Origin: an archaeon
GTDB taxonomy: Archaea > Iainarchaeota > Iainarchaeia > Iainarchaeales > CSSED10-239
Direction: 5' to 3'
NCBI GenBank assembly: GCA_035390665.1
Contig: DAOOUC010000013.1
Location: forward strand, 1 to 17,713
Length of the DNA: 17,713 nucleotides
Shown here: one piece after another, positions 876 to 17,400 of the stretch
Position numbering within the stretch: position 1 is the first letter of the stretch
Layout of the letters: each line of letters begins with the position of its first letter
The notes under the pieces: generated by a model
What the model saw: only the letters and a program-made list of their open reading frames with translations
Database searches by the model: none
What the model was told of the DNA's origin: nothing
Position numbers and translations under genes: made by a program

Positions 876-2228
876 ATGAAAAAATATAAAGTAAAGGCTC
901 TTGAGCCACTTATCGCATCAATTTTATTAATTGTAGTTGCTGTCATCCTTGTAACAATTGTTTTAAGTTGGGGTAAAGAATTTACAACAACTTCTGTAAA
1001 TAAAAGCAATTCTTTAATTAATCATGACATTCTAAGCGACAAGCAACCATTCATTCGCTTTGAAAAAGCAGAAAACGGAATGTATTTTTTTGATTTCTAT
1101 CCTCCAAACAATCAGGACATAAATTTTACAATAGTAGGTTATTCTCTAATTGGTTATAATAATTATATCCCTTTAGAACCAGAATACACAATAACCCACG
1201 CCGGCAAGTTTATGTTACCTTTAGGAATAATTGACGAAGACAGATTTACAATAGGTCTTCTTCTTGACGATGGTAGTTATCTAACCTTTAAAGATATAAC
1301 AAACAAAAACAGAAGCCCAAGCCCAAGTGATTGTCCAGCAGGCTTTGTTCCAGTACCTGGCAATCATCTTTATGGAACGGTTGGATCAAAGGGCGGCTTT
1401 TGTGTTGCACAGTTTGAGATGAAAGTTGATCAGAATGGCGATGGTCTTGGAGATAGCAACACAAGTTGTCAAAATAGCATTTATGCAACTTGGAATAATG
1501 CAGGCACTAATTGTGCATATAATACAGACACAAGAAGTTTAGTTTCAAGTGCAGCAGGTTATCCATTAGCAAACATATCTCAAACAGATTCAATCACTGC
1601 TTGTGAATCCATTGGTGGTCATTTAATAACCAATAACGAGTGGATGACCTTAGCAAGAAATATTGAAAGAGTACCAAGTAATTGGTCAAGCGACACAATT
1701 GGTACAGGATATATTTATTCTGGGCATAACGACGGAACTCCATATGCTGCACTTGCGGGAGACACTAACAACGGTAATGGTTATTATCTAACAGGTCAAA
1801 CAAGTGGCAATCAACGAAGAACTTTAACTCTAACAAATGGCGAAGTAGTTTGGGACTTAGCAGGAAATGTTTATGAATGGAGTGATACTATAAGTTCAGA
1901 TGATTTAAGTCTAGCTTATGATGATTATGAAAATTTAGGTGATGATGGAGAGTATTCTACATATTTTAGAACAGCAGACGGTAATTTTGGTAGTATAGGT
2001 TATAAAGGTAATTTTTTATTAAATTCAGATTATAATAGTGATAATGGAATTGGAAAAACTTGGGGTTGTACAACTGCATGTAATGGTGAGGAATATACAA
2101 TTGCGTTTTTGCGCGGCGGTACTTGGAGCAACGGAGCGAGCGCCGGACTTTTGACGTTGGACGCGAGCGGCGATCCGTCTAGCGCGGGCGGCGACTTCGG
2201 CTTTCGTTGTGTTGTAGTGCCCGAATGA
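876..2228 (+). CDS. DGR variable (target) protein: archaeal type IV pilin-like N-terminus plus C-terminal C-type-lectin / FGE-sulfatase-fold ligand-binding domain carrying the VR
   Basis: The N-terminus MKKYKVKALEPLIASILLIVVAVILVTIVLSWG has a short charged head followed by ALEPLIAxxLLI and a hydrophobic helix. This is the archaeal class III signal peptide ('archaeal flagellin N-terminal-like') pattern. From about aa 153 there are FGE-sulfatase/CLec hallmarks: CPAGFVPVPG, GFCVAQFEM, ACESIGGHLITNNEWMTLAR, GNVYEWSD, RGGTWS...FGFRCVVV. The VR occupies the C-terminal ~40 codons, in frame. Confidence 0.9.
   Translation: MKKYKVKALEPLIASILLIVVAVILVTIVLSWGKEFTTTSVNKSNSLINHDILSDKQPFIRFEKAENGMYFFDFYPPNNQDINFTIVGYSLIGYNNYIPLEPEYTITHAGKFMLPLGIIDEDRFTIGLLLDDGSYLTFKDITNKNRSPSPSDCPAGFVPVPGNHLYGTVGSKGGFCVAQFEMKVDQNGDGLGDSNTSCQNSIYATWNNAGTNCAYNTDTRSLVSSAAGYPLANISQTDSITACESIGGHLITNNEWMTLARNIERVPSNWSSDTIGTGYIYSGHNDGTPYAALAGDTNNGNGYYLTGQTSGNQRRTLTLTNGEVVWDLAGNVYEWSDTISSDDLSLAYDDYENLGDDGEYSTYFRTADGNFGSIGYKGNFLLNSDYNSDNGIGKTWGCTTACNGEEYTIAFLRGGTWSNGASAGLLTLDASGDPSSAGGDFGFRCVVVPE
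2101..2219 (+). repeat. DGR variable repeat (VR), in frame at the 3' end of the target gene
   Basis: These 119 bp align without gaps to 3231-3349. There are 20 mismatches, all at positions where the other copy has A (17 are G, 2 are C, 1 is T in this copy). Similarity stops abruptly at both ends: 2100 vs 3230 and 2220 vs 3350. The invariant 3' stretch tcggctttcgttgtgttgtagtg (2197-2219) is the expected position of an IMH-like element. Confidence 0.95.
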
Positions 2229-2418: not shown

Positions 2419-2817
2419 TTGGGAAAAATAATGTGGGTTTATGATAAAGGGATTTCTAGTTTTAAAATATATCAAGAGATGTTTCCAGTAATTACCAATG
2501 CTTTAAATGCTTTGGTGGTTTGTGAAGAAAAAAATAAAAACTCGTCTTTTGCTTTTCTAATTTTGGATTCAAAAATAAAAGCAACAGATATTTTATCGTT
2601 TATTGCAAGTGGCTATAATAATTATGATACTAAGCTTAAAGTAATGGAATATAATAAAGCAAGAAACGCAATTTCTATTCTTCAATCTAATCTTATATTA
2701 TTAAATAATTATAAAATATTATTAGATGAAGATTTAAATGAAAATTACACTAATTTAGAAGATAAGTTAAAAATGATTTCTGGAGTTTTAAGAAAGATTG
2801 AAAAACTAAAAAACTGA
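2419..2817 (+). CDS. Hypothetical helical protein encoded inside the DGR cassette (possible divergent four-helix-bundle/Avd-like paralog)
   Basis: This is a 132-aa ORF. The track start is TTG at 2419, and an ATG at 2431 (MWVYDK...) is a likelier start. It ends 6 nt before the avd-like gene. The C-terminal half, KARNAISILQSNLILLNNYKILLDEDLNENYTNLEDKLKMISGVLRKIEKLK, loosely follows the pattern of the last two helices of four-helix-bundle (23S rRNA-IVS / Avd-type) proteins. No confident family assignment. Confidence 0.55.
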   Translation: MGKIMWVYDKGISSFKIYQEMFPVITNALNALVVCEEKNKNSSFAFLILDSKIKATDILSFIASGYNNYDTKLKVMEYNKARNAISILQSNLILLNNYKILLDEDLNENYTNLEDKLKMISGVLRKIEKLKN

Positions 2818-2823
2818 TAAAAT

Positions 2824-3156
2824 GTGCTTGATGATTTAAAAATATATAAAGAAAGTTATAATTTTTTTGTGTGGCTTTGGCCATTAATAAATAAATTTCC
2901 AAAATCTGAAAAATATGTTCTAGGTGAAAAACTAAAATTTTGTTTTTTAGAGTTCTTTGATGCAATTATTTCTTATAATTATAATTATGATAGAAAAGAA
3001 TCATTAAAAAAAGCAAATATAGAACTAGAAAAATTAAGATTATTTATAAGAATTGCAAGGGACTTAAATATTATTAATTTTACTAAATATGAAATTGCTT
3101 CTAGAAAATTAAACGAAATTGGTAAACTTCTAGGCGGTCTAATAAAAACAATTTAA
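2824..3156 (+). CDS. avd: Avd-like accessory variability determinant (four-helix-bundle protein family)
   Basis: The 110-aa sequence MLDDLKIYKESYNFFVWLWPLINKFPKSEKYVLGEKL...LEKLRLFIRIARDLNIINFTKYEIASRKLNEIGKLLGGLIKTI matches the four-helix-bundle family signature (l.vY..a..l...iy.l...fPk.Eky.L..ql ... l.iA.dl.yi....y..l...l.eigkmL.Glik). It sits directly upstream of TR, as in canonical DGRs. The start codon is GTG. Confidence 0.85.
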   Translation: MLDDLKIYKESYNFFVWLWPLINKFPKSEKYVLGEKLKFCFLEFFDAIISYNYNYDRKESLKKANIELEKLRLFIRIARDLNIINFTKYEIASRKLNEIGKLLGGLIKTI

Positions 3157-3230: not shown

Positions 3231-3349
3231 TTGCGTTTTTGCGCGGCGGTAATTGGAACAACGAAACGAACGCCGGACTTTTGAAATTGAACGCGAACAA
3301 CAATCCGTCTAACACGAACAACAACATCGGCTTTCGTTGTGTTGTAGTG
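3231..3349 (+). repeat. DGR template repeat (TR), non-coding master copy
   Basis: This is the adenine-rich copy of the 119-bp repeat, with 34 A. It is intergenic, between the avd-like gene and the RT. Read in the VR frame it encodes AFLRGGNWNNETNAGLLKLNANNNPSNTNNNIGFRCVVV, with 12 AAY (Asn) codons (10 AAC, 2 AAT). That is the classic DGR design, because adenine mutagenesis of AAY cannot create a stop codon. Confidence 0.95.
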
Positions 3350-3570
3350 TCTGCCCTAAAAGGGGTAATACAAAGAGTTTGTTTGTATTATTTTTAGTTA
3401 TTTAAAACAAACAAAGAAGTATTGTAAAAGAATACTACATTTAGTATATTCCTGGCTGGTATTTTTGCCTATATAATTTTAAATTATATAAAACAAGCCG
3501 AAAATAAACAAAAAAAAAGTAGTTAGTATTTTTTTAAAAGAATACTACTTTTTTTACAAAAATACAAAAT
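3350..3570 (+). ncRNA. TR-RT spacer, presumably part of the TR-containing DGR RNA; rich in hairpins
   Basis: There are four structures. Hairpin taatacaaa/tttgtatta is at 3366-3390. Hairpin agtatt/aatact is at 3418-3436. A perfect 10+1+10 palindrome, tatataattt-t-aaattatata, is at 3470-3490. Hairpin tagtatt/aatacta is at 3524-3547. The exact 14-mer taaaagaatactac occurs twice (3425-3438 and 3535-3548). No ORF is present. Confidence 0.5.
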
Positions 3571-4602
3571 ATGAAAACATATACTAGTTTGTGGCAGAAA
3601 CTAACTTCTTTTAAAAATCTATATCTTGCTTATAAAAAAGCAAAAAAAGCAAAACCACAAACTACTGATGCATTAGAATTTTCTATTAATTTAGAAAAAA
3701 ATATAGTGTTGCTTCAAGAGGAACTATTGACTGATAACTATAAACAATCAAAATATAGAACGTTTATAATATTTGATCCAAAACAAAGAATAATCAAATA
3801 TCTACCATTTAAAGATAGGGTTGTGCATCACGCGATAGTTAATATTATTGAACCGATTTTTGAAAAAAGATTTATTTCTACAAGTTATGCTTGTAGAAAA
3901 AAGAAAGGCACACATAAAGCACTAAAAGATATTAGAAAAGTAATTTATAACAAATTTAAAGACACAGGATATTGTTTGAAAGGAGATATAAGAAAGTATT
4001 TTCCTAGCATTAATCAAGACATTTTAAAAAATATAATTTCAAGAAAGATAAAAGATAAGAAACTATTAAATCTAATTTTTAAAATAATAACTAGCGATCA
4101 TTCCGATTTTGGAGAAACTAAAGGAATACCAATAGGTAATTTAACCAGTCAGTTATTTTCAAATATTTATCTTAATGAATTAGATCAATATGTTAAACAA
4201 GAATTAAATATAAAATACTATTACAGATATGTTGATGATTTTATAATCTTAAATGTTTCTAAGGAAGAATTGCATATAGATAAACAAAAAATAAAATATT
4301 TTCTTAAGAAAAGATTAGATCTAGATTTACCTAAGAGAAAATGTAATGTTTTTAAAATAAAAGACGGAGTTGATTATGTTGGTTATAAGCTTTTTCCAAA
4401 TAAGATATTAATAAGAAAAAGAAATCTTAAAAGATTTCTAAATAAAATAAAAAGCAAAAATACAAATAAAAACTATAATTCTTCAATTTATAGTTATTTA
4501 GGTTATTTTAAATACGCCAATTCATATAATTTATTATTAAAAATATTTGAAATTAATAAAACTTATTTAAGAGAAATAGAGCTAAGTAAAATCTATTCCT
4601 AA
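3571..4602 (+). CDS. DGR-type reverse transcriptase
   Basis: The 343-aa protein has RT motifs in order: FDPKQRIIKYLPFKDRVVHHAI, CLKGDIRKYFPSINQ, GIPIGNLTSQLFSNIYLNELD (the DGR-diagnostic [I/L]GxxxSQ), YYRYVDDFIIL (catalytic YxDD) and VDYVGYKLFP. Size and N-terminus (SFKNLYLAYKKAKKAK) are typical of DGR RTs. Confidence 0.93.
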   Translation: MKTYTSLWQKLTSFKNLYLAYKKAKKAKPQTTDALEFSINLEKNIVLLQEELLTDNYKQSKYRTFIIFDPKQRIIKYLPFKDRVVHHAIVNIIEPIFEKRFISTSYACRKKKGTHKALKDIRKVIYNKFKDTGYCLKGDIRKYFPSINQDILKNIISRKIKDKKLLNLIFKIITSDHSDFGETKGIPIGNLTSQLFSNIYLNELDQYVKQELNIKYYYRYVDDFIILNVSKEELHIDKQKIKYFLKKRLDLDLPKRKCNVFKIKDGVDYVGYKLFPNKILIRKRNLKRFLNKIKSKNTNKNYNSSIYSYLGYFKYANSYNLLLKIFEINKTYLREIELSKIYS

Positions 4603-4649: not shown

Positions 4650-5459
4650 ATGACTATTCAAAAAAAACAGTTCACTCCAGGAAAAGGAGCAATCTATTAT
4701 TTTTCAGGAACAGGAAACACTGCCTTTGTTGCTTGTGAGTTTCAAGAAAATTATAAAAAAAAAGGAGTGGTTGTTGATCTTTTCCAAATAGAAAAGATTG
4801 AAACAGTAACAAGTCAAGGAAAATATGATTTCCTAATGATTGGTTTTCCTACTTATTATTTTTGTCCCCCTCAAATGGTTGTTGATTTTATAAAAAAACT
4901 TCCAGAAGTAAAAGATAAACCAGTTATTCTTTTTGCAACAGGTGGTGCAAGTGCAGGAGCTAGTTTTAATGTATTAGAAAGAATCTTAAGAAAAAAAAAA
5001 TATCAAGTAATTTCTAATTTCTTGTATATTATGCCAAGCAATGATGGTTTTTTATTTAATAAAGATATAGATAAAGAAGAACATGCAGATCTTAAAATAT
5101 CCGGAACAAAAGAAAAGATTAAGCAGGATTTTGAGTTAATAACTTCAGGAAAATCAAAATTTAAATCCGCAAATATTTTTATATCTTTGATTTCTGAAAT
5201 TGCAAAGTTTGGAATGAATAAAAAAAACAAATGGTTCTGGGATAAAAAGGAATGTAATTTTTGTGGGCTCTGCGCAAAGGTCTGTCCAACAAAAAACATA
5301 ACAATAAAAAAAGAAAAAGGCAAAGTGATTTTTGGAAACAACTGTATGTTCTGTTCACGTTGTTATAATTTTTGTCCAAAGAAAGCAATACATTACAAAT
5401 CAATAAACAAAACAAAAAATTTCAAAAGATACACAAGATTAAAAAATGAAATAATTTAA
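4650..5459 (+). CDS. Flavodoxin-like domain fused to a 2x[4Fe-4S] ferredoxin domain (EFR1-type ferredoxin-like protein)
   Basis: The N-terminal YYFSGTGNTAFVA is a flavodoxin-like phosphate-binding loop. The C-terminus carries two cluster motifs, CNFCGLCAKVCP and CMFCSRCYNFCP. Confidence 0.8.
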   Translation: MTIQKKQFTPGKGAIYYFSGTGNTAFVACEFQENYKKKGVVVDLFQIEKIETVTSQGKYDFLMIGFPTYYFCPPQMVVDFIKKLPEVKDKPVILFATGGASAGASFNVLERILRKKKYQVISNFLYIMPSNDGFLFNKDIDKEEHADLKISGTKEKIKQDFELITSGKSKFKSANIFISLISEIAKFGMNKKNKWFWDKKECNFCGLCAKVCPTKNITIKKEKGKVIFGNNCMFCSRCYNFCPKKAIHYKSINKTKNFKRYTRLKNEII

Positions 5460-5470
5460 AGGCATAAAAT

Positions 5471-5929
5471 ATGGAAATAATAAAATATAGTTATGAGGAA
5501 ATAGAAAATCTTTGTGTAAAGGTTTCTGAAGAAATCAAAAGCACAGATTACAAGGTTGATTGTATCATTGGTGTAGCAGTAAGTGGTTTATTCCCTGCAA
5601 TGATTATGGCAAGACTATTAAATGTAAAAAATGTAATAAGTGTTTCTGCAGTTTCTTATCAAGGTAAAGAACAAAAAGAAATGAAACTTTTAAATGCCCC
5701 AGATAAAGCGGCTCTAAAAGGTAAGAATATTTTAATTGTTGATGATATTTGTGATTCTGGAAATACTTTAATTTTCTTAACCAAACTACTAAAAGACTAT
5801 CAAGTAAAAGAAATAAAAAGTGCAACAGTTTTCTTAAATAAAGAACATCACAAGATTGTTCCAGATTTCTACGGAGAAGAAATAAATAAATGGGTAGCAT
5901 TTCCATGGGACAAGTTTGAAAAGGAATAA
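5471..5929 (+). CDS. Type I purine phosphoribosyltransferase (xanthine/guanine-hypoxanthine PRT-like)
   Basis: The 152-aa protein has the PRPP-binding motif NILIVDDICDSGNTL and the early GVAVSGLFPA loop. The C-terminal WVAFPWD resembles Gpt/Hpt-type enzymes. Confidence 0.85.
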   Translation: MEIIKYSYEEIENLCVKVSEEIKSTDYKVDCIIGVAVSGLFPAMIMARLLNVKNVISVSAVSYQGKEQKEMKLLNAPDKAALKGKNILIVDDICDSGNTLIFLTKLLKDYQVKEIKSATVFLNKEHHKIVPDFYGEEINKWVAFPWDKFEKE

Positions 5930-5931
5930 GC

Positions 5932-7746
5932 ATGTTAAAAAAAGATTATCTTTTGTTTTTTTTAATACTTTCAATATTAATCTTTCCAACGGTTTATGCA
6001 AAAGAATTCAAAATAAACAATTATGAAATAACTTATTTTTTAGAAAAATCAGGAAAAATAAATGTTTCTGAAACAATAGATTATCAACTATCTGGTTGTT
6101 TTAAAGAACTTTATCTTCAAAGACCAGGAATTGATATTACAAATCCAACAGGGCAGTGTATAGGCGCAACTTGTGAATTTGAATATAAGCAGATAGGCAC
6201 AGAATCAGGTGACCCCGAACTAATATTACGTGGTAATTTCTGTAATCAAAAAGTTACTGCACATTTTAATTATAATTTGGAAAATCAAATTAGAAACTTA
6301 GTTGATGGTGCACAATTCTATTATCAAGTTTATCCTGGAAAAACAACTGTTTCAACTAATGCTAAAATTATGATTTATTTTCCAGGAGACATAAATAAAG
6401 TAACAAGATTTATTCATTCAAAAGATTATCTTTTAGAAACAAACGATAACGTATTAATTATTTCTAAACCGGTAGGTGCCTATGAAATAATAGAAATAAA
6501 TTTTTTAATGCCTAAGGAGTGGTTTAATCAAGGAAGTCTTTATAGCTATCCAGATACAAATTACACACAAGCTCAAATAATCCAACAAGAAGAAAACTGG
6601 GAAGAAGGTTATACAAAATATACAAAAGAAAATGTAAAAACAGAAGCGTCATTAGGCATTACATTTCTATATCTTTTCTTAATGATTGGTTTACCAATTT
6701 TATTATTATTTATTATTTGGTTAATATTTGGAAAAGAGATTCCAGAAAATAAAACAGGTTATTCAGGAACCTATGAAAGGGATTTACCTGGTGATGAAGA
6801 CCCAATTCAAGCACATTATTTAATAACAGGGAAATTATCAACACATTGGTTTTCGTCAGCAATCATGTATCTTGTTTGGAAAAAGCAATATGAATTAATA
6901 AAACAAGAAGACAAATCATTTTTTAGTTCTGAAAAATATAAATTAGTAAAAATAAAAAATGCACCAGAAATTAAACTTCCAGGTTATGTTTTAGAAGTTA
7001 ATAAATTTTTCTTAGAATATTATCCTGACGGCACAATTGATTTAGATGAATTAAAAAACGGGCAATACAAACCAAAAGGAGATTTAGATTTCTTCTCAGA
7101 ATTAGAGGAAAAAACTAATTTCGCAAACGATTTTAGTACTTTACAATTAAAGGTTAAAAAAGAAATAAGCAGATGGGAAAAAGAAAAAAAATATTTTAAT
7201 AAAACTGGAATGATTATAGCAAATATTACAATTGTTTTACATATATTTATTTTTTCAGAAATAATTCAGATGATATTTATGAGATATATTTTTCCAATAT
7301 GGATCTCATTTGTTTTTTGGAGTTGTATAATTTTAATAATTCTTGCAAATATTATTAGTAGATCCAAGATAAGTTTTGCAGTAATTTTTGGAAGGTTTTC
7401 TAAAGACGGCAGAGTTAAAAATTTACAATGGACAAATTTTAAAAGATACATAACCGATTATTCTTTAATGAAAGAGCACCCGCCACAACACGTGATTCTT
7501 TGGGAAGAATATATGGTTTATGCAACTGCTTTTGGAGTAGCAAAAGAAGTTTCAAAGGCATTAAAAGTGGTTATGCCGGAAGAAGTTTCAACAAATCAAC
7601 AATTTGCAGTATATTCAGCATTTGCAGTAAGTAGTTTTTCAACATCAACGGATTACTCGTCATCCGGCGGTAGTGGCGGCTTTGGTGGAGGTGGCGGGGG
7701 CTTTGGTGGTGGCGGTGGTGGGGGCGGCGGTGCCGGTGCCCGTTAA
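5932..7746 (+). CDS. DUF2207-type membrane protein with a C-terminal poly-glycine tail
   Basis: It has an N-terminal signal/anchor (LLFFLILSILIFPTVYA), a large extracytoplasmic domain and several TM helices. The tail SSGGSGGFGGGGGGFGGGGGGGGGAGAR is characteristic of the DUF2207 family. The start codon is 2 nt after the PRT stop. Confidence 0.75.
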   Translation: MLKKDYLLFFLILSILIFPTVYAKEFKINNYEITYFLEKSGKINVSETIDYQLSGCFKELYLQRPGIDITNPTGQCIGATCEFEYKQIGTESGDPELILRGNFCNQKVTAHFNYNLENQIRNLVDGAQFYYQVYPGKTTVSTNAKIMIYFPGDINKVTRFIHSKDYLLETNDNVLIISKPVGAYEIIEINFLMPKEWFNQGSLYSYPDTNYTQAQIIQQEENWEEGYTKYTKENVKTEASLGITFLYLFLMIGLPILLLFIIWLIFGKEIPENKTGYSGTYERDLPGDEDPIQAHYLITGKLSTHWFSSAIMYLVWKKQYELIKQEDKSFFSSEKYKLVKIKNAPEIKLPGYVLEVNKFFLEYYPDGTIDLDELKNGQYKPKGDLDFFSELEEKTNFANDFSTLQLKVKKEISRWEKEKKYFNKTGMIIANITIVLHIFIFSEIIQMIFMRYIFPIWISFVFWSCIILIILANIISRSKISFAVIFGRFSKDGRVKNLQWTNFKRYITDYSLMKEHPPQHVILWEEYMVYATAFGVAKEVSKALKVVMPEEVSTNQQFAVYSAFAVSSFSTSTDYSSSGGSGGFGGGGGGFGGGGGGGGGAGAR

Positions 7747-7823
7747 TCTATAAACAAATTATTTATAAATCCTTTATTCTTATTTATTTCTAAATATATT
7801 TATAAAATCAGGAGAGAAAAAAT

Positions 7824-10238
7824 ATGGTATCTAAAGAAAAACAATTTATTATGTGGTTTGATGAAGTAGGAATTGAAGACATTCCTTATGTTGGTGGAAA
7901 GAATGCCTCTCTTGGAGAAATGTATCAAAATCTTGGAAAAAAAGGCGTAAAGATTCCATTTGGTTTTGCAATTACAGCTTATGCTTACAGATATATTTTA
8001 GAAAAATCTGGAACAAAAAATGAAATTAAAAAAATATTAAAAGATTTAGATACTCATAACCTTGATTCTTTAGCAGAGAAAGGACATAAAATTAGAGATT
8101 TAATAAGACATACTGAGATTCCAAAAGATTTAGAAAAAGAAATATTTGATGCTTATGATAAACTTTGTAAAAAAGAAAAAATCCCTGATCTTGATGTCGC
8201 TGTAAGATCAAGTGCAACAGCTGAAGATCTTCCTGATGCTTCTTTTGCAGGACAACAAGAAAGTTATTTAAATATTAGAGGAAAAGCAAATCTTTTAGAA
8301 GCTGTAAGAAAATGTTTTGCTTCTCTTTTTACAAACAGAGCAATCTCTTATAGAGAAGATAAGCATTTTGATCACTTTAGTATTGCTCTTTCAGTTGTTG
8401 TTCAAAGAATGGTTAGAAGTGATTTAGCTTCTTCAGGAATAATGTTTTCAATTGATACAGAAACAGGTTTTAGAGATGTTGTTGTTATAAATTCAACTTA
8501 TGGTCTTGGAGAAAATATTGTTCAAGGTGCAGTCAATCCTGATGAATTTATTGTCTTTAAACCAACATTAAAACTTGGAAAAAAACCAATTATTTCTAAA
8601 GTTCTAGGAGAAAAAGCAATTAGAATGGTTTATGATAGAGAAGGCAATAAGCCAGTAAAAAATATTTCAGTTGAACCAACTGAAAGAAATAAGTTTTCAA
8701 TAACTGATGATCAAGCCTTGCAATTAGCAAAATGGGCTTGTGATATTGAAGAATACTATTCTAAAAAAGCAGGCTATCACAAACCAATGGATATGGAATG
8801 GGCCTTGGACGGTAAAACAAATGAATTGTTTATTGTTCAAGCAAGACCAGAAACAGTACAATCTAGAAAAAATTTAAATAGTTACACAACATACATTATG
8901 AACACAAATGAAAAACCAATAGTTATTGGAAAAAGTGTCGGCCAACAGATATCAACTGGAAAAGTAAAAGTAATAAAGGATGCAAAAGAAATCAATCAAT
9001 TTAGAAAAGGAGAAATTCTTGTAACAGAAATGACAGATCCAGATTGGGAACCAATCATGAAGATTGCTTCCGGAATAATAACAAACAAAGGTGGAAGAAC
9101 CTGCCATGCTGCAATTATTTCAAGAGAGCTTGGTATCCCTTGTGTTGTTGGAACAATTGACGGAACAGTAAAACTAAAAACCGGACAAGAAATAACAATG
9201 GATTGTTCAAGCGGAGATGCTGGTTTTGTTTACAATGGGAAAATACCTTTTACAAAACAAGTAACTGATTTAAAAGAATTACAAAAAACAAAAACACAGT
9301 TAATGATGAATGTGGGTAACCCAGAACAAGCATTTGATTTAAGTTTCTTGCCAAATGATGGTGTAGGCCTTGCAAGAGAAGAGTTTATTATCAACTCTTG
9401 GATACAGATTCATCCTCTTGCTCTTATCAATTACAATAAGATAACAGATGCAGAAACAAAAGCAAAGATTGATGAATTAACTGTTGGTTACACTGATAAA
9501 AAACAATATTTTGTAGATAAGTTAGCACAAGGTATTGCAAGAATTACAGCCGCATTCTATCCAAAGAAAGTAATTTTAAGACTTTCAGATTTTAAATCAA
9601 ATGAATATGCAAACTTAATTGGTGGTAAAGACTATGAGCCAATAGAAAGTAATCCAATGATTGGTTGGAGAGGTGCATCAAGATACTATCAAGGAAATTA
9701 TGTTGCAGGTTTTGCTTTAGAATGCCAGGCAATTAAAAAAGTAAGAGAAGAATTTGGTTTAACAAATTTAGAATTAATGATTCCTTTTTGTAGAACAATT
9801 GATGAAGCAAAGAAAGTATTTGCAGAAATGAAAAAGAATGGATTAGAGAAAGGAAAGAACGGTCTAAAAATAAACTGTATGTGTGAGATCCCTTCTAATG
9901 TAATTTTAGCAGATGATTTCTTAGAAGTCTTTGATGGTTTCAGTATTGGAAGTAATGATCTAACACAATTGACTTTAGGACTTGATAGAGACTCTGAACT
10001 TTTAGGTAATATCTATGATGAAAGAAATCCAGCAGTTAAAAAACTTCTTGCTGATGTCATAAAGATAGCAAACAAAAAGGGCAAATATATAGGTATCTGC
10101 GGGCAAGCGCCATCTGATTATCCAGAAATGGCAGAGTTCTTAGTAAAAGAAGGAATAAAATCAATGAGTTTAAATCCAGACTCAATTGTTAAAACAAGAA
10201 TTGCAATTGCAAAACTTGAAAAGAATTTAAAGAAGTAA
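7824..10238 (+). CDS. ppsA: Phosphoenolpyruvate synthase (pyruvate, water dikinase)
   Basis: The 804-aa protein has an N-terminal ATP-grasp region (VGGKNASLGEMY), the phosphohistidine swivel motif GGRTCHAAIISRELGIPCVVG and a C-terminal PEP-utilising TIM barrel (SIGSNDLTQLTLGLDRDS). A GGAG-like element lies 7-12 nt upstream of the ATG. Confidence 0.95.
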   Translation: MVSKEKQFIMWFDEVGIEDIPYVGGKNASLGEMYQNLGKKGVKIPFGFAITAYAYRYILEKSGTKNEIKKILKDLDTHNLDSLAEKGHKIRDLIRHTEIPKDLEKEIFDAYDKLCKKEKIPDLDVAVRSSATAEDLPDASFAGQQESYLNIRGKANLLEAVRKCFASLFTNRAISYREDKHFDHFSIALSVVVQRMVRSDLASSGIMFSIDTETGFRDVVVINSTYGLGENIVQGAVNPDEFIVFKPTLKLGKKPIISKVLGEKAIRMVYDREGNKPVKNISVEPTERNKFSITDDQALQLAKWACDIEEYYSKKAGYHKPMDMEWALDGKTNELFIVQARPETVQSRKNLNSYTTYIMNTNEKPIVIGKSVGQQISTGKVKVIKDAKEINQFRKGEILVTEMTDPDWEPIMKIASGIITNKGGRTCHAAIISRELGIPCVVGTIDGTVKLKTGQEITMDCSSGDAGFVYNGKIPFTKQVTDLKELQKTKTQLMMNVGNPEQAFDLSFLPNDGVGLAREEFIINSWIQIHPLALINYNKITDAETKAKIDELTVGYTDKKQYFVDKLAQGIARITAAFYPKKVILRLSDFKSNEYANLIGGKDYEPIESNPMIGWRGASRYYQGNYVAGFALECQAIKKVREEFGLTNLELMIPFCRTIDEAKKVFAEMKKNGLEKGKNGLKINCMCEIPSNVILADDFLEVFDGFSIGSNDLTQLTLGLDRDSELLGNIYDERNPAVKKLLADVIKIANKKGKYIGICGQAPSDYPEMAEFLVKEGIKSMSLNPDSIVKTRIAIAKLEKNLKK

Positions 10239-10263
10239 TTTTTACTTCTTTTCTTTTTTAATT

Positions 10264-10758
10264 TTGAAAAAAATGAAATCAATACTTTTCGTATGTTCAG
10301 GAAATATTTTTAGAAGCATGTGTGCTGAGCTTTTTCTAAAAAAACATCTTCAAGAAAAAAACATAAAAATTAAAGTAACTTCTGCAGGCATTACTGCAAA
10401 AAAGCAAGAGATTCACTTAATAGTAAAAAAAGAACTTGATAGATTAAATATTGATTATTCCAAGCACAAGCAAAGAAAAGTTACAAAAAAAATTCTAGAC
10501 TCTTCTTCTCTTGTAATCTCTATGGCAAAAGTTCATCAACAATTTCTTAAAGAAAAATTTAACAAAGATTCAATTCTTTTTAATGAAATAGTTTTTGAAA
10601 AGAAAGAAGATTTCTTAGATTATCCAGATATTTTAAAAGAAACAAATTCAGAGAAGAAAGCAGAAAACTATCTAAGAAAAGCAGTAAAGGAAATAGATAA
10701 AGGTACAAAGAAAATGCTTCTTTCAAAGAGTTTACAGCAGCTTTATAAACATAATTAA
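10264..10758 (+). CDS. Low-molecular-weight protein-tyrosine phosphatase (LMW-PTP / ArsC-like fold)
   Basis: The active-site P-loop ILFVCSGNIFRSMCAE (CX5R-S) lies at the N-terminus. The track start is TTG at 10264, and an ATG at 10273 (MKSILFVC) is an equally plausible start. Confidence 0.8.
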   Translation: MKKMKSILFVCSGNIFRSMCAELFLKKHLQEKNIKIKVTSAGITAKKQEIHLIVKKELDRLNIDYSKHKQRKVTKKILDSSSLVISMAKVHQQFLKEKFNKDSILFNEIVFEKKEDFLDYPDILKETNSEKKAENYLRKAVKEIDKGTKKMLLSKSLQQLYKHN

Positions 10759-10801
10759 TCAATATATATTTAGATTTTATAAATAAAATTGGTGATTAAA
10801 A

Positions 10802-11356
10802 ATGTTAGGATGGTTAATTCCTCTAATCATTTTAGGTCTTCTTGGTTTAATTACATTATTAATGTATAATGGTTTAATTATTACAAGAAACAAAGTAAAA
10901 AATGGTTGGAGTCAAATAGATGTTCAATTAAAGAAAAGATATGATCTTATACCTAATCTTGTTGAAACAGTAAAGGGTTATGCAAAGCACGAAGCAGGAA
11001 CATTATCCAAGATTACAGAATTAAGAAGCCAAGCAATGCAAACAAAGGATAAGAATTTAGCAATGAAAGCAAACGATCAAATGTCAAAAGCAATTGGTGG
11101 TTTACTAAACGTTGTTGTTGAAAATTATCCTGATTTAAACGCAAGCCAAAATTTCTTAATGCTTCAAGAAGAATTATCAGGTATTGAAAATAAAATAGCA
11201 TATGCAAGACAGTTTTATAATGATACAGTAATGGATTACAATAACAAATTACAAGTTTTCCCAAACAATATCTTTGCAAAAGCATTTAATTTCAAAGAAG
11301 AATCATTCTTAGAAGCAACATCTGAAGAAAAAAAAAACGTAAAAGTTTCTTTTTAA
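10802..11356 (+). CDS. lemA: LemA family protein
   Basis: It has a single N-terminal TM helix followed by YNGLIITRNKVKNGWSQIDVQLKKRYDLIPNLVETVKGYAKHE...YARQFYNDTVMDYNNKLQVFPNNIFA. This closely matches the conserved LemA core. Confidence 0.9.
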   Translation: MLGWLIPLIILGLLGLITLLMYNGLIITRNKVKNGWSQIDVQLKKRYDLIPNLVETVKGYAKHEAGTLSKITELRSQAMQTKDKNLAMKANDQMSKAIGGLLNVVVENYPDLNASQNFLMLQEELSGIENKIAYARQFYNDTVMDYNNKLQVFPNNIFAKAFNFKEESFLEATSEEKKNVKVSF

Positions 11357-11483
11357 TTTCTTCTTTTTTTCTATTTTTAACTTTATTTTAGTAAATAGTT
11401 AATATTTATATTCTTTTTCTTATTAAACATATATAAATATTTGTATCTTATAAATATATTATATATTAAAAGAGAGATAATAA

Positions 11484-14400
11484 ATGGCAAAAGCAAAATC
11501 CAAACCAGCTAAAGAAGAATTTGATGATTTTGAGGAAGAAGATTATGATTATTCCGATGAATCAAAATCAAAAGAAAAAAATATTTTCGGAAAAGCCTAT
11601 AGCTTTTTAGAAGAGAAATATTTTGCTTTTTCTGATTGGTTATCAAAGAAAGGAATTCCTTTAGATAAATTAAATACTTTCTTAGAAGAAAAAGGTATAC
11701 CTTCTTTTGCAGCAGTTACTTGTTTTTTCTTTTTGCTACTTGCAATAATTATTTTAATAATAATTAACATAGCAACAACAGCAACAATAGAATTAAACAT
11801 TACAGATTATTCTAATAATTCTTTATCTGATGTTCAATTAATTGTTTCTGATTTATATGGTAAAACAAAATTTAGTGGAATAGTAAATGATGGCGACAAA
11901 ATTAAAGCCAAATTAAAATCAGGAAGTGATTATGTAATTGAAGCCACAAAATCAGATTTAGAAAATTATAATAATCAGATAGTCTTTGTAAGAGGGGATA
12001 AATTTAATATAAAGTTTAATGAAAAATATACAACAGGAGATTTAAGTATTGTTGTAACAGATACTCAAACAAAGAAAAAAGTTCCATTATATGAAGTAAA
12101 ATTAAATTTTAGAATAAATGGAGAAGCAAAAGAAGAGGTTGCTATTGCAGATGAAAAAGGAGAAATTTCTTTTACAAATATTCCTTTAGATAAAGACATT
12201 ACATTAACAGTTAATGCAGATGGCTATCAAACATATTCTCAAAATTTTAGATTATTAAATTCTGTTGAAACAAAAAATATAGAATTGGCATTTGATGAAG
12301 ATTCTATATTATTATCAGGAAAAGAATCCAAAGTTACAATCGTTGTAACAAAAGAAAATGGAGACTTGATAGATGCAGCAGATGTAACAATTTATAACAC
12401 AGCAGGAGAAATAATTGCAACAAATTTAACTGTTCTTGGTAAATCAGTATTTACTTTAAACTCTGGTCAAGCAATAAGGTTTGTAGTATCAAAAGAAGGA
12501 TATAGAACATATGATAGTGATAAAGAAGAAAGATCTTATAGAATACAAAACCCAGAAGAAACCTATACTGCAAAATTAATTGCAGGAAGTTCTGATTTAA
12601 AAGTAAAAGTTTTAGAAAAAGGTGTTGGTCCTTTATCTGAAGCAGAAGTTTCTTTATATAATTCAAGTAATAATTTAATTGAAAGTAAAACAACACAATT
12701 AGACGGGATTGTAATATTTACAGGTTTAGATAAAAATACAGAATATATTGTAACAGCTTGTAAAACAGGATACTATTGTTTACAATCTTTTGCAAACATA
12801 GAAGAAGAAAACGAAATTCAACAAGAGTTAGAAAAAGTAAGCATAGACACTAGTGCATTATTATCTATTTATGTTTATGATTCTTTAAATTCTCCAATGA
12901 CAAACGCAAAAGTTAATGTTTTTAAAGAAGTTATGTCAAGATATGTGGCAACAGGTCATGGCACATTATCTGTTGATTTAACAGGCCAAACATCAATAAT
13001 GACAAAACATGGAGACAAATATAAAGTAACTGCAATTGTTGGCGAAGTTGAAAAAACAGAAGAGATAACTATTGATCCTTTTAAAGATAATAAATTAATT
13101 TTGATTTTAGATCAAGCATCAAGATTTGTTACTTTAAATTTAACAGATAAAGATGGAAATCCAATAACTGAAGGTTGTGTATTAATAAAATCAAAAACAG
13201 GAGAAATTCTTTTTGATGATTGTTTGAATGGTTCAAATATAGTTGAATTTAATAATAAAGGATATAAAGATTTAATTGTAGAATACACAGACATAGAAGG
13301 AAACACAACAACCATGTCAACAAGACTTGGAGAATCTGATGAAATAAATTTAAAAATTAAGCAAACAACTGTTGGAAATAATCCAGTAATTAGCTTCTTA
13401 GAATTAAGGGATTCTTATAATTCTTTAACTCCAATTTTAAGTTTAGATAAAGAATATTATGCAGTCTTTGATGTTTTGATACCAGAAGGGGCAACATCTT
13501 GTGCAGTACATTTTAGAGCAGGAGATGATGAACAAACAGATTCAGATAATATGACTTACGGAATAACAGGTTATAAGGCAGACACAACAAATTACAAGTA
13601 TTCAACAACATACACCCCAGGGCAACAATCAATAGATTATGATAATTCTGGTTCTCCAAATCAAATAAACAAATGGCTAGAATTATATTGGAAGAATTTA
13701 GATCAAATAACAAATAAGCAAATAATGATAAAATTAAAAGCAACAGAACTTGATGAAAAATTTATTTTAAAATATAGAGTGTGGTGTGAATCTGAAGGAA
13801 AAGTATATAGAGATCCAATAGATTCTGTTTTAGGAGAAACAAGATCTAATTCTCAAAAACAATTTTTATATGCAGACACAAAAGAGCAAACATTTGATGT
13901 TTTAGAAACTCCTGCAGATTGCTCCGGAGATTTATGTATTGATTATAAGTTTATAGATGATAGCTCATTTGAATATACTCCCGAAAAATTCTATGCAGTT
14001 AAAGAAGGATTATATGCATTAGAGTTGTCTTTCTTAAGTATGAAAAATACAGAATTATCAATTGATTCTGAAACAGACAAATCTAGACCAATAATTGGGT
14101 TAGTAAATTATCAAGATACAGGAATGTTCCCAAGTAATACTGTAGCTTCAGAAGAAGTTCAATTATCTTACACAAATTTAAATTTAGAAGCAACAAAAAG
14201 AAAAGCAGTTTATCTTTTCTTTATTGCAAAAGAAACAGGATCAACATATCTTGATTTAAAAATAAATAATAATTCTAAAATTACAGAAAAAAGAATAAGT
14301 TTTAATGTTGTTCCAAGAAAAACAATGGAAGTTTTAGTTAAAGATGTAATACCATATAATTCTCCAATAGTTGTTGAGATTAAAGACAAAGACACAAAAA

Positions 14401-17400
14401 AAATAGTAGATACTGCCTTTGTGAAAGTAAGTGATGATTCTGGAAGTTTATTAGGTAGTGTGAAAAATAGTAAAACAGGGAAATATATAATTAATCAAAA
14501 TTTCTCTGTAGCAAAACCAATTCTTGAAGTTACTGCTCCAGGTTATGCTCCATATGCAAAACATTTGATTATTGCAGATACAGGCATATTGTCTGCACCA
14601 GATAGATTAGAAATTAGATTTGGAGAAAACATTAGTCAAGAGTCAGAGTCATTTATAATAATAAATAAAAGTAGTCAAGAAATTACAGATTTAACCTATC
14701 AATTAAATTATATTGATTATGTTGCAAGCATGCAAGCAACTTTAGACTTACCAGCTGTGTTAAAATCAGGAAAATCTGAAAACTTAGAATTAATAACAAC
14801 CGTTGATCCTAAAGCAAATTTTAAAACCGCAAAAGGAATTTTAACAATTTCAGGATTTATTGGTAATAAGCAAGTTGTTAAAGAAATTGAAGTAATTTAT
14901 TATAGAGGAACAATAGAAAGTGATTGTTTAGAAATAAAACCAAAACAATTGTTTGCTTATGTTGGAATAAGTGAAGGTTCAAGTCAAGAGTTAATGTTTT
15001 CTGTACATAACAATTGTCAAAAAGCAATATCTATAACTCCTGAGCTATTAAATTCAAGAGGCACAAAGATTAGAAAAGATGAAAATATAGAAATAATTAT
15101 TCCAAATATAGATATAGAAGCAAATGAACAAATTGATGATTATACAATTGTTGTAAAAAATAATAAAGAAAGAAAATTAACAAAAACTTATAATTTCGAA
15201 ATAGCATGGAGAAATCAATATTTTGTTTTCGAAAATACAAAACTTAATGTTGAATTAGTAGATTTGTCAAAATCATTAGTAGTTATACCATTGGCATCAG
15301 CAATTTCTTTAGTACAAGTTGTAGATCAACAACCAGCATTAAATCAAACAAGATTTATATTAAAGAATGTTGGTAAATATCCATTAACAGACATCCAAAT
15401 ATCTAGATTTGAAGCAACAACATATTCAAATATAGAAGATAAAATAGAGCCTCCAAGTTTTGAATCTATAAAACCAGGAGAATCAAAATCAATAACAATA
15501 AGGTATTCTGGTAAAATTGATAAAGCAACATATGCTGATTTATATTATCAGGTTACAGCTAATGCAGTAGGGGTCAGTACACCAATAACTACAAAGTTTA
15601 GTGTTGGATTTATGTTTTCTTCTGCTGGTTGTTTAAAGTTAGATCAAACAAAGATTAGTTTCTATTCTAAAGTAAATGAAGAAAAAACAAAATTAATTAA
15701 TATTACAAATCAGTGTGCAGAACCTGTAGGTTTAATAACACACGACCAGGGAAATAGCACATATTTTATAGATACCTTTGGAGATGGAACACAGGTTTCA
15801 ATATATCCTGCAGTTGCTGCTCCTGTAATTTATCCTGGTCAAACAATAGGTTATTTTATAAGAATAAAACCAACTAAATATTTCACACCAAAAACAGATA
15901 GAGTTGTGAGATTATTAGGTGTTCCAACAAATTATGGACAAGGAGGAAGAGTAACTTCAAATACTTTCCTATTTTCTATAGAATTAGAACCAGAACACCC
16001 AGATCAAGAAGAAGATTATAAAAGAGTAGAAGAAAATATAAGTATTCCAGTTTGTGGAAAAGATTCAGAATCTGACGATTCAACAGTTGATTATACTTTC
16101 CCAGTAATTGTCCCTGATTGTAAACAAGACGGATATTGTGATTCCTATTCTGCTGCCGAGTTAATTTTAGAGCAAATACAAAGTTTACATACAGAAGTAA
16201 TAAATTCTTCAAATCAAGCAAATAATAAAGTTGTTCAAACAGCATGTTCACAAACTGCAGCAAATAACGGTTATTGTCCAATCTCAGACATATTGCCTCC
16301 ACAAAAATTACAAGAATATAAAAATATTTTATTGTATTTACAAAATGATAACTTAAGTGAAAGAACTATTGAGTTATTATTAAAAGATGGAAACACAAGT
16401 GCAACTAAATATCCAACCATAAAAGATTACATGGTAAAGGCAAATGTAGGTTATACAACAGGTGGTTTAGGATTTTCAGGAAATGTAATACATATTTCAA
16501 ATAAATTAAATGGTTGTGGAAGATATAAATTAGAAATAACAGGAGCCATAGCTACAAAAAACTACACAGACTTAGATCCACAAAGGGCTTATTTCTTCTT
16601 AGATGTAGTTGATTCAAATAAAACAGATCAATGTAAAAAAAATATAGAAAATGTAATGATATTTTTACCAAAAGATTTGAAATTTAGAAGAACAAATACA
16701 GGAGATACTTGGCTTACAATAATAACAGGAAGCAAAGATTTTGCACAACCAATAGCAAAAGATGTATTTGGTTCAGAAGATAGATTTGTTTTAAAATCAG
16801 TAGAACAAAAGAAATACAGTTTATTAGATGTAACAATAGGGGAATTAAAAGACAGTGAATCTGATGCAATCGCAAAAATGTATTATAAAGATTCAGTTGA
16901 TTCAAATAATTCTAAAGCCGAAGAAGTTTCAATAATAATAAATGATAAATTTGGAATTAAAAAAGAAGGCATTAAAGATGTAAATTATCCTGCAGAATTT
17001 ATAACAGATACTTCAAGAAGCATTAAAGCAATATTAGAAGGTAAACCTGCAAATATTTGTATATCAGAAGACAAAAGTTATATGTTAATTATGTCTATTG
17101 ATTCAGATTATGGATCTTTATTCTTAAAATCAAAAGCAGATGGTAAATTACAATTAAAACCAACAAAGACATGTACAGAGTTTACAGTTAAATCAGCAGT
17201 TAATGAACAAGTTTCAATTTCTTATGAAGATCTTTCAGGAATTCAACTTAATTTTAACTATGATGGTAAAGATTATCCAAGTCCTATGCCTTTGGTTTTA
17301 GAAAAAGACAAAGAATTAGATTTCAATGTTTGTATTAAATCAGACATTAGTCAAATATCGTCTTGGAATAATAAAGAATTAAAAGTAATAGCTGAAAGTA

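Follow-up and report, generated by a model that had tools for sequence, protein, structure and literature searches.

A hypervariable C-type-lectin module that is probably carried on an archaeal type IV pilin and rewritten by an adjacent diversity-generating retroelement

Diversity-generating retroelements (DGRs) are unusually common in DPANN archaea and in bacteria belonging to the Candidate Phyla Radiation (CPR), and the roles of their targets there are poorly known. Most DGR targets "remain entirely uncharacterized" (Paul & Eren 2022), and the targets of archaeal clade 5 and CPR clade 2 typically lack recognisable transmembrane or conserved domains, with their location at the membrane left open (Roux et al. 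2021, PMC8144416). The stretch of archaeal DNA analysed here (contig DAOOUC010000013.1, 17,713 nucleotides; the window) carries a DGR next to the gene it targets, an open reading frame (ORF) at positions 876–2228, and raises the question of how the diversified protein is displayed. The answer that we favour, and consider likely, is that the product of ORF 876–2228 is an archaeal modular type IV pilin, the effector module of which is rewritten by the adjacent DGR. Positions below are those of the window, residue numbers are those of the ORF 876–2228 product, and the features on which the argument turns are the following.

876–2228, plus strand: DGR target gene (ORF and translation), encoding a 450-residue protein that is probably a modular archaeal type IV pilin
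876–899, plus strand: predicted class III signal-peptide leader, residues 1–8 (MKKYKVKA), from family statistics
900–1013, plus strand: predicted pilin alpha-1 helix, residues 9–46, with its hydrophobic core at residues 12–30 (AlphaFold2 helix 11–46; 11–44/46)
1053–1298, plus strand: predicted pilin globular domain, a seven-stranded beta-sandwich, residues 60–141 (AlphaFold2 strands, Foldseek)
1311–1331, plus strand: linker RSPSPSD, residues 146–152, read directly (SPSPS is residues 147–151, nucleotides 1314–1328)
1332–2225, plus strand: module of C-type-lectin/FGE-sulfatase fold, residues 153–450 (Pfam PF03781, Foldseek)
2101–2219, plus strand: variable region (VR), residues 410–448, with 17 diversifiable residues within 416–441 (119-nucleotide repeat with the template region)
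2431–2817, plus strand: 128-residue accessory ORF to which no function is assigned, conserved in archaeal cassettes of the target family
2824–3156, plus strand: bAvd accessory protein, 110 residues (Pfam PF22296, E=1.2e-23)
3231–3349, plus strand: template region (TR), 119 nucleotides, the repeat copy paired with the VR
3571–4602, plus strand: DGR reverse transcriptase (RT), 343 residues (Pfam RVT_1, E=7.1e-23)

The N-terminus of the target has the organisation of an archaeal class III signal peptide. The protein starts MKKYKVKALEPLIASILLIVVAVILVTIVLSWGK, with a basic leader, K or R at –2 and a small residue at –1 of the predicted cut site, and then a hydrophobic stretch of about 20 residues; with a slash for the cut, leader and downstream segment read MKKYKVK-A/LEPLIASILLIVVAVILVTIVL, and the N-terminus written across the predicted site reads MKKYKVKA-LEPLIASILLIVVAVILVTIVLSWGK. 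No segment other than residues 12–30 is strongly hydrophobic (Kyte-Doolittle 19-residue mean 3.4 there; the next-best mean beyond residue 45 is 1.15). The motif belongs to the family as a whole: in an alignment of 60 full-length homologues the residue at –2 is K/R in 59, those at –1 (A/S/G), +1 (I/L/V), +2 (S/E/T) and +3 (P/A/S) conform in every one, the sequence continues (L/I)(I/V)A(T/S)ILL(I/V)VV, and the median leader is about 8 residues long. When the same 60 sequences were scanned individually against family models (E<=0.01), 36 matched TIGR02537 (best 1.2e-6), 38 matched a model of the Sulfolobus UpsA pilin and 14 matched Pilin_N; the homologue P0009 has a precomputed PF07790 match, and several homologues are annotated by JGI as "flagellin-like protein". 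The window protein on its own is sub-threshold, and the class III signal call therefore rests on family-level, profile and structural evidence.

A profile built from the first 150 residues of 32 homologues and searched against all PDB sequences found as its best match a subunit of the Pyrobaculum calidifontis "flagellar-like archaeal type IV pilus" (8fk7, E=2.6e-7), aligned over profile positions 3–51 and across the motif G/LEPIV, in which LEP at +1 to +3 is identical. The 8fk7 sequence, MKTKG/LEPIVAAVLLIVVAVI, has an unusual Glu at +2 in common with the window protein. Further matches were 8rey (7.4e-4), 9myg (6e-3), 8gi2 (Natrinema PilA2; 0.01) and 8fj5 (0.02), followed by weaker ones to 5kyh (Iho670), 8fjs and 3j1r (E of 0.14–0.16), and the first unrelated protein appeared at E=0.27. 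In the deposited chains of 8rey, 5kyh and 3j1r residue 1 aligns with L9, from which cleavage by a prepilin peptidase is predicted to fall between A8 and L9.

An earlier reading made from the sequence alone had proposed the class III signal and pilin-like N-terminus, followed by an uncharacterised module of about 120 residues. The module exists, and it is better described as the pilin's own beta-sandwich head. AlphaFold2, fed the 60-sequence alignment, gave a full-length model (pLDDT, the predicted local distance difference test, 80.8; pTM, the predicted template modelling score, 0.81) with strands at residues 60–66, 69–74, 84–92, 97/98–106, 110–115, 124–130 and 135–141, where pLDDT is mostly above 85. 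A separate model of residues 1–152 (pLDDT 83.3) combines the helix and the seven-stranded sandwich in a 'lollipop' fold, and its top three Foldseek matches in the PDB, 8fk7 (2.2e-4), 6w8u (5.6e-4) and 6nav (1.8e-3), are all archaeal pilus subunits. As modelled, residues 1–145 are a complete archaeal type IV pilin module. Residues 7–53 are 57% identical to a stand-alone small pilin of a related locus (L022:822–1385, a 187-residue ORF, about 163 residues when mature); co-assembling pilins typically have a conserved alpha-1 helix and a divergent head. With the family motif, the profile match to 8fk7, archaeal pili at the top of the Foldseek list and the pilus genes of relatives described below, the proposed signal and pilin-like N-terminus are upheld at the level of the family, the motif being conserved in all 60 homologues and the window protein itself scoring below threshold. 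The remaining features that the sequence-only reading had described, namely the ORF, the hydrophobic segment, the SPSPS, the lectin domain and the VR, are all present where it had put them.

Directly after the linker, in which P148 is invariant in the alignments, stands an invariant C153, and the rest of the protein is the lectin module. Pfam FGE-sulfatase (PF03781) covers residues 201–341 above its gathering score (E=3.8e-7). The expectation that residues from about 153 to the end adopt the C-type-lectin (CLec) fold of DGR variable proteins was borne out by the full-length model, for which the top PDB matches are the DGR variable protein TaqVP (5vf4, 2e-5), FGE (2q17, 5e-5) and Mtd (1yu1, 6e-5), and the archaeal pili 6w8u and 6nav are also matched; an insert at residues 346–371 is modelled with low confidence. 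In the family profile the VR of TaqVP aligns at residues 409–447, and the C-terminal segment of TaqVP that is aligned with the window VR reads ...RGGDWGNGGVAGLAALYLL...GVGARPA.

The window DGR is canonical and complete. VR and TR differ at 20 of 119 nucleotides, and every one of these mismatches falls on a TR adenine. The TR holds 34 adenines and, in the VR frame, 10 AAC and 2 AAT codons; its A-containing codons number 19, exactly as had been counted before, and 17 of them have A at codon position 1 or 2. About 8e17 protein variants can be reached in the VR, and a stop codon can arise from just one TR codon (AAA, K427). The positions that the TR marks as changeable are also those at which the family varies: across the 60 homologues column entropy is 2.99 bits for the 17 TR-adenine codons, 1.07 for the other VR codons and 1.50 for the rest of the lectin module. 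Between 90%-identical homologue P0001 and the window protein, 14 of 45 differences lie inside residues 416–441. The variable residues are interleaved with the invariant scaffold residues G414, G415, W417, G424, L426, L428, G442, R444 and C445, and the predicted strand 424–432 has an i/i+2 pattern in which conserved L426, L428 and A430 alternate with variable T427, D429 and S431. This pattern is the one expected if the variable side chains face solvent, and argues for that arrangement at the level of sequence.

The adenine substitutions of the window are themselves G-biased (17 A>G, 2 A>C and 1 A>T), and the same tendency is seen when eight related cassettes (L015, L016, L017, L021, L043, L054, L056 and L078) are pooled (78 G, 33 T and 24 C). 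The bias could be a misincorporation bias of the RT in this DGR clade, or could come from selection for binding sites rich in Gly, Ser and Asp. Because the substitutions are biased to G, there is a local GC peak (41%) in a window that is otherwise AT-rich (about 27% GC).

Which organisms use this protein, and do they make pili? We found 575 homologues of the target protein, and the full-length ones are in DPANN-type archaea, where a scan of GTDB species genomes places them in "uncultured archaeon" genomes and in metagenome-assembled genomes (MAGs) of Ca. Iainarchaeum. The complete Ca. Forterrea multitransposorum genome (CP045477.1) has three copies; NCBI taxonomy assigns this genus to Nanobdellati (the DPANN kingdom), Ca. 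Iainarchaeota. Scanning 10 kb either side of the homologues of archaeal relatives, we found pilus-machinery genes at several loci. At one Ca. Forterrea locus (L023) a Peptidase_A24 gene lies 7.5 kb from a target homologue, and two further large genes with pilin N-termini flank this homologue, making three in tandem. In the genome that encodes P0025, P0029, P0038 and P0100, a Peptidase_A24 gene lies 3.4 kb from P0100 (L010) and a 771-residue T2SSE ATPase lies about 6 kb from P0029 (L012), and a further locus (L029) also has a T2SSE gene. At L022 there are three tandem small pilins with matching alpha-1 helices 8 kb from the target homologue; the MAG to which this locus belongs is also the source of L014, at 58% identity the nearest relative of the window protein in GTDB.

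The most complete neighbourhood is that of locus L072 (uncultured archaeon CAYXAY010000001.1), where positions 4937–15790 hold a complete archaeal type IV pilus operon. Its order is T2SSE (1.6e-46), two T2SSF genes, class III pilins, two lectin-pilins in tandem, more pilins, a Peptidase_A24 with Arc_PepC, and further pilins, with about eight class III pilins in all. The lectin module of the tandem lectin-pilins is homologous to that of the window (phmmer 6.9e-36 and 4e-25), and their signal is of the other archaeal class III type, KGQxSLE (PF04021). Neither an RT nor a TR is present within 10 kb of L072, and the fusion of pilin and lectin therefore also exists without a local DGR. Altogether a pilus-machinery gene occurs within 10 kb at about 5 of roughly 22 archaeal loci, which are not independent of one another, and this suggests a possible enrichment of pilus genes near archaeal homologues.

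The pilin module is also used with other cargo. A profile of the module, searched against 1.84 billion representative proteins (E<=1e-3), matched 1240, of which 203 matched at E<=1e-10. Among the best 150 of these 1240 the module nearly always begins no further than about 30 residues from the N-terminus (at the latest at residue 89), and protein length ranges from 56 to 1134 residues, including stand-alone pilins of about 140–180 residues; one of the stand-alone pilins, P0140, carries the motif KALEPLIAT. The contigs that carry the stand-alone pilins P0200 and P0140 measure 0.8 and 3.6 kb, which leaves no room for pilus machinery to be seen. The C-terminal modules of the 96 long members are diverse, with GLUG in 21, a ConA-like lectin (Laminin_G_3) in 15, Lcl_C/DUF1566, which is a common DGR-target lectin domain, in 11, CHB_HEX_C_1 with Fn3_assoc in 8, RCC1 propellers in 7 and Peptidase_M26_N in 7, and PKD, Kelch and FGE-sulfatase also occur. 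A search of a 5.8-billion-protein set with the first 62 residues of the window protein, aimed at small pilins of the organism itself, returned only 4 short matches.

Small genomes of the family hold three or four pilin-lectin paralogues each, and an RT adjoins only some of them. Examples are the genome represented by L007, L010, L012 and L013 (three of these four on one 688-kb contig) and the Ca. Forterrea genome CP045477.1 (L021, L023 and L056). No local TR was found within 10 kb either side of the paralogues in L007, L010, L012, L013, L014, L022, L023 and L072, and paralogues without an adjoining RT may undergo diversification in trans or represent fixed variants. In one Ca. Iainarchaeum MAG (L019, JBBISB010000001.1) target and RT occur twice and identically, at 5210–6637 and 11561–12988, about 6.35 kb apart, which is either a duplication of the DGR or an assembly repeat. 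A MAG labelled 'uncultured Planctomycetia' (L031, 508–5494) encodes a protein of more than 1600 residues with a homologous lectin module and an internal archaeal-type class III motif, KNAQISLEILAILG, which suggests a mis-binned archaeal contig or a mis-called start.

Taken together, these data lead us to propose the following course of events. The class III signal peptide would place the pre-protein in the membrane, where an A24-family prepilin peptidase of the PibD/EppA type would remove MKKYKVKA, making L9 the mature N-terminus by alignment to solved subunits. A T2SSE ATPase and a T2SSF platform, as judged from homology and from the gene neighbourhoods of relatives, would then extract the pilin module from the membrane, and the module would pack with small pilins of about 140–180 residues that have nearly the same alpha-1 helix. 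The SPSPS linker would keep the 300-residue module of C-type-lectin fold outside the filament. By analogy with PilB, CofB and TcpB, so bulky a module would best suit the pilus tip or a sparse minor subunit, and we think that it is probably at the tip. RT, bAvd and the 128-residue ORF, together with the TR, would serve to copy the TR into the VR with adenine-specific errors, and the copying would re-randomise 17 residues (416–441) that alternate with an invariant scaffold. In a DPANN-type (Iainarchaeota-like) archaeon this would amount to a programmable adhesin that binds host cells, particles or glycans, its ligand and role being conjectural.

Several observations weigh against this proposal. 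The window protein scores below the cut-offs of PF07790 Pilin_N (14.8 against 25.2 bits) and TIGR02537 (15.1 against 20 bits), in both cases in the correct register. The similarity of its sandwich to those of pilins is modest (TM-score about 0.4), and FN3 domains rank next and nearly as high. Some archaeal proteins with class III signal peptides, such as the sugar-binding proteins of Sulfolobus, are not classical pilus subunits, and most paralogues in related genomes do not adjoin pilus genes. Prepilin peptidase, ATPase, platform and small pilin are all unseen in the public contigs of the window organism, the longest of which is 20 kb and which cover about 29 kb in total. The window itself equals positions 351–18063 of one of these contigs (ENA ERZ27257456 k141_51376) except for one base, and contigs in three JGI samples encode an identical target protein or an identical PEP synthase. 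TR and VR are each identical in five public contigs from four samples (JGI 3300010429, 3300009838 and 3300025706; ENA ERZ27257456), also at the corresponding positions in L001–L006; at consensus level the VR is thus unchanged among these samples, and diversification at present is conjectural.

One rival reading is a membrane-anchored or pseudopilus-like receptor, in which the pilin-like module would only anchor the lectin or raise it through the S-layer, in the manner of the Sulfolobus 'bindosome' and without an extended pilus. As in such a receptor, the N-terminal hydrophobic helix is the only membrane segment of the protein, no pilus gene is seen in the roughly 29 kb of public sequence of the organism, most paralogues are scattered among housekeeping genes, and most cellular DGR targets have been described as membrane-anchored binders (Roux et al. 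2021, PMC8144416). However, both the sequence and the fold of the N-terminal 150 residues are similar to those of filament-forming subunits, and conservation of the cleavage motif is strict; relatives possess small pilins with a near-identical alpha-1 helix, as co-assembly would need; and at L072 pilin-like genes bearing a CLec module lie within a full pilus operon. We regard a mere anchor as unlikely.

If the protein does enter a filament, it might be the major subunit, in which case every subunit would bear a lectin module and the fibre would be coated lengthwise with hypervariable sites. Large archaeal fibre subunits do exist, Iho670 (303 residues, 5kyh) being among the profile matches, and Raynaud et al. 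2021 (PMC8179133) allow a position in the filament body when the linker is flexible. Their modelling argument nevertheless makes a 300-residue module on a 140-residue pilin module sterically unfavourable in a type IV pilus lattice, and relatives hold both paralogues with varied modules and small stand-alone pilins, as is usual for sets of minor and major pilins. A filament built of lectin-bearing subunits throughout is on these grounds quite improbable.

A third rival is that the target is no part of the cell surface. It might be a receptor-binding protein encoded by an integrated virus or mobile element, phage receptor-binding proteins being where DGRs were first found and a gene for a ParE-like toxin lying just upstream; or it might be an FGE-like enzyme inside the cell, several homologues bearing the NCBI name 'SUMF1/EgtB/PvdO family nonheme iron enzyme'. 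Both are so improbable that we reject them, the viral origin because the flanks encode an XPD-like helicase, a class I tRNA synthetase (PF00579), a flavodoxin, a phosphoribosyltransferase and PEP synthase, with no capsid, tail or integrase genes found in them, and the covered context is the same across four samples, and the enzyme because the Pfam FGE match is partial (profile positions 62–194 of 255) and the best folds include the DGR variable proteins TaqVP and Mtd.

A modular pilin diversified by a DGR joins parts that are each known. In Mtd of phage BPP-1, TvpA of Treponema denticola, TaqVP of Thermus aquaticus and the nanoarchaeal AvpA, the VR is likewise the C-terminal 40 or so residues of a CLec/FGE-type fold, and the window target resembles these DGR variable proteins in its AAC-rich template, its adenine-only mismatches, the RT and Avd alongside and the alternation of invariant and variable residues. 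What differs is the display. Mtd sits on phage tail fibres, and TvpA, like the Legionella variable protein LdtA, is a lipoprotein (PMC8867640), whereas the CLec module of the window is fused to what is modelled as a full archaeal type IV pilin; for AvpA, term searches of PMC4372165 and PMC5006420 found no mention of an N-terminal targeting or pilin feature.

The architecture of pilin module (residues 1–145), linker (RSPSPSD) and CLec module (residues 153–450) is that of the "modular pilins" defined in bacteria by Raynaud et al. 2021 (PMC8179133), whose survey includes lectin and M26-peptidase modules and who hold that modular pilins are most likely at the pilus tip. Bacterial modular pilins (PilB and PilC of Streptococcus sanguinis, CofB of enterotoxigenic Escherichia coli (ETEC), TcpB of Vibrio cholerae and PilX1 and PilX2 of Saccharibacteria) follow the same plan of class III signal, small pilin, linker and bulky ligand-binding module, and are further alike in having lectin-type effectors and in the re-use of one carrier with many modules. 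In Saccharibacteria, lectin-like minor pilins on type IV pili mediate host binding (PMC11623550). Whereas the bacterial proteins are of the IPR012902/N_methyl type with Glu5, the window protein has an archaeal Pilin_N-type signal and a beta-sandwich head. It has no match to PF07963 (IPR012902), its motif being archaeal, and it is therefore an archaeal counterpart that stands outside the set surveyed by Raynaud et al. Diversification of bacterial modular pilins by a DGR is unreported, and DGRs go unmentioned in PMC11623550 and in the available text of Raynaud et al.

The solved archaeal pili (P. calidifontis 8fk7, P. arsenaticum 6w8u, S. islandicus 6nav and Iho670 5kyh) have a homologous leader, cleavage motif and alpha-1 helix and the same plan of helix and beta-sandwich, but their subunits are of about 130–300 residues and lack an appended lectin domain or hypervariable cassette. 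A DGR likewise diversifies the adhesive component of a pilus in Bacteroides, where the diversified proteins are tip adhesins (bioRxiv 10.1101/2024.11.15.621889); there, however, the pilus is of type V and assembles via strand exchange, and the system belongs to another domain of life and to the human gut. A survey lists a "G-type pilin" among the rare domains that hold a VR (PMC11661182). In the literature that we searched no paper joins "class III signal peptide" with DGRs, or the pili of DPANN archaea or Patescibacteria with DGR targets, and an earlier mention in Paul et al. 2017 (Nat Microbiol) is possible. The components, that is DGR lectin-fold proteins, archaeal type IV pilins and bacterial modular pilins, are thus each known, and their combination was not found in that literature.

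A parallel combination is present in bacteria. In Patescibacteria (CPR) the lectin module has abundant relatives at a greater distance (about 35–45% identity), and many of them start with the bacterial prepilin motif G/FT(L/I)(I/V)ELL. At three such loci the targets match Pfam N_methyl above its gathering score as well as FGE-sulfatase, RT and Avd adjoin, and the mismatches between VR and TR fall on TR adenines in 18 of 18 cases (L043), 15 of 16 (L054) and 15 of 15 (L078); these three, in contrast to the window protein, do have a pilin module of the bacterial N-methylation type. Close homologues of the window RT adjoin homologous targets in both archaeal and CPR loci, the CPR enzymes (E-values of about 1e-80 to 1e-92) being nearly as close to it as those of the more distant archaeal cassettes (1e-99 to 1e-106). 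The presence of a homologous lectin module and a related RT in both domains therefore points to one diversifiable module that is paired with the pilin carrier appropriate to each domain. We put forward more tentatively the idea, about which we remain somewhat doubtful, that DGR-programmable pilus adhesins are a device common to both radiations of ultra-small episymbionts, DPANN and CPR, and that the module crossed between domains and its carrier was swapped.

If that is true, it answers for this target family the question of Roux et al. 2021 whether archaeal and CPR DGR targets reach the cell surface. The pilin-lectin family would give a concrete display mechanism for a DGR variable protein, as would the CPR prepilin fusions, and the concept of the modular pilin, surveyed so far only in bacteria, would extend to archaea. 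Type IV pili would also be linked with DGR hypervariation, both being features regarded as central to episymbiosis, and the 'attachment' hypothesis for the DGRs of DPANN and CPR becomes open to specific experiments on cleavage by the peptidase, co-assembly with small pilins and density at pilus tips in cryo-electron tomography (cryo-ET).

Some further features of the cassette deserve mention. Homologues of the 128-residue ORF occupy the same position at L008/L021, L015, L016, L017, L020 and L056, and no counterpart was detected in the bacterial cassettes. The 128-residue form has no Pfam match at E<=0.01, and a 132-residue form with an upstream TTG start has only a sub-threshold match to 23S_rRNA_IVP (E=0.017); the ORF may encode a second, divergent Avd-like accessory protein. 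In some DGRs a target-recognition hairpin sits right after the target gene. In the window, the GC-rich stretch 2229–2290 directly after the target stop codon holds a 7-bp inverted repeat (arms 2231–2237 and 2264–2270), which folds no better than shuffled sequence (z=-1.1), and we do not claim a hairpin there. The spacer between TR and RT (3350–3570) is rich in inverted repeats, including perfect 12-nucleotide arms at 3512–3523 and 3544–3555 and 13-nucleotide arms at 3378–3390 and 3403–3415; these might contribute structure to the DGR RNA, and many could also be due to chance given how AT-rich the sequence is.

Outside the cassette, a toxin pair (80–442 and 411–746, both on the minus strand) lies immediately upstream of the DGR target and on the opposite strand. 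It comprises a ParE-like gene (PF05016, E=9.7e-6) that overlaps an upstream 111-residue ORF without a Pfam match, likely the antitoxin. In the public contigs the upstream 10 kb of the organism holds the XPD-like helicase, the class I tRNA synthetase and similar genes. Downstream, the plus-strand ORF 5932–7746 encodes a DUF2207 membrane protein with a Gly/Ser-rich tail of about 40 residues (…SSSGGSGGFGGGGGGFGGGGGGGGGAGAR). A giant plus-strand ORF (11484–17713) runs off the end of the window; in L004 (11834–18463) it reaches at least 2210 residues and is still cut by the contig end. It matches nothing but CarboxypepD_reg and, below threshold, a bMG3 domain near the N-terminus, and is probably a giant surface protein of the type common in DPANN genomes.

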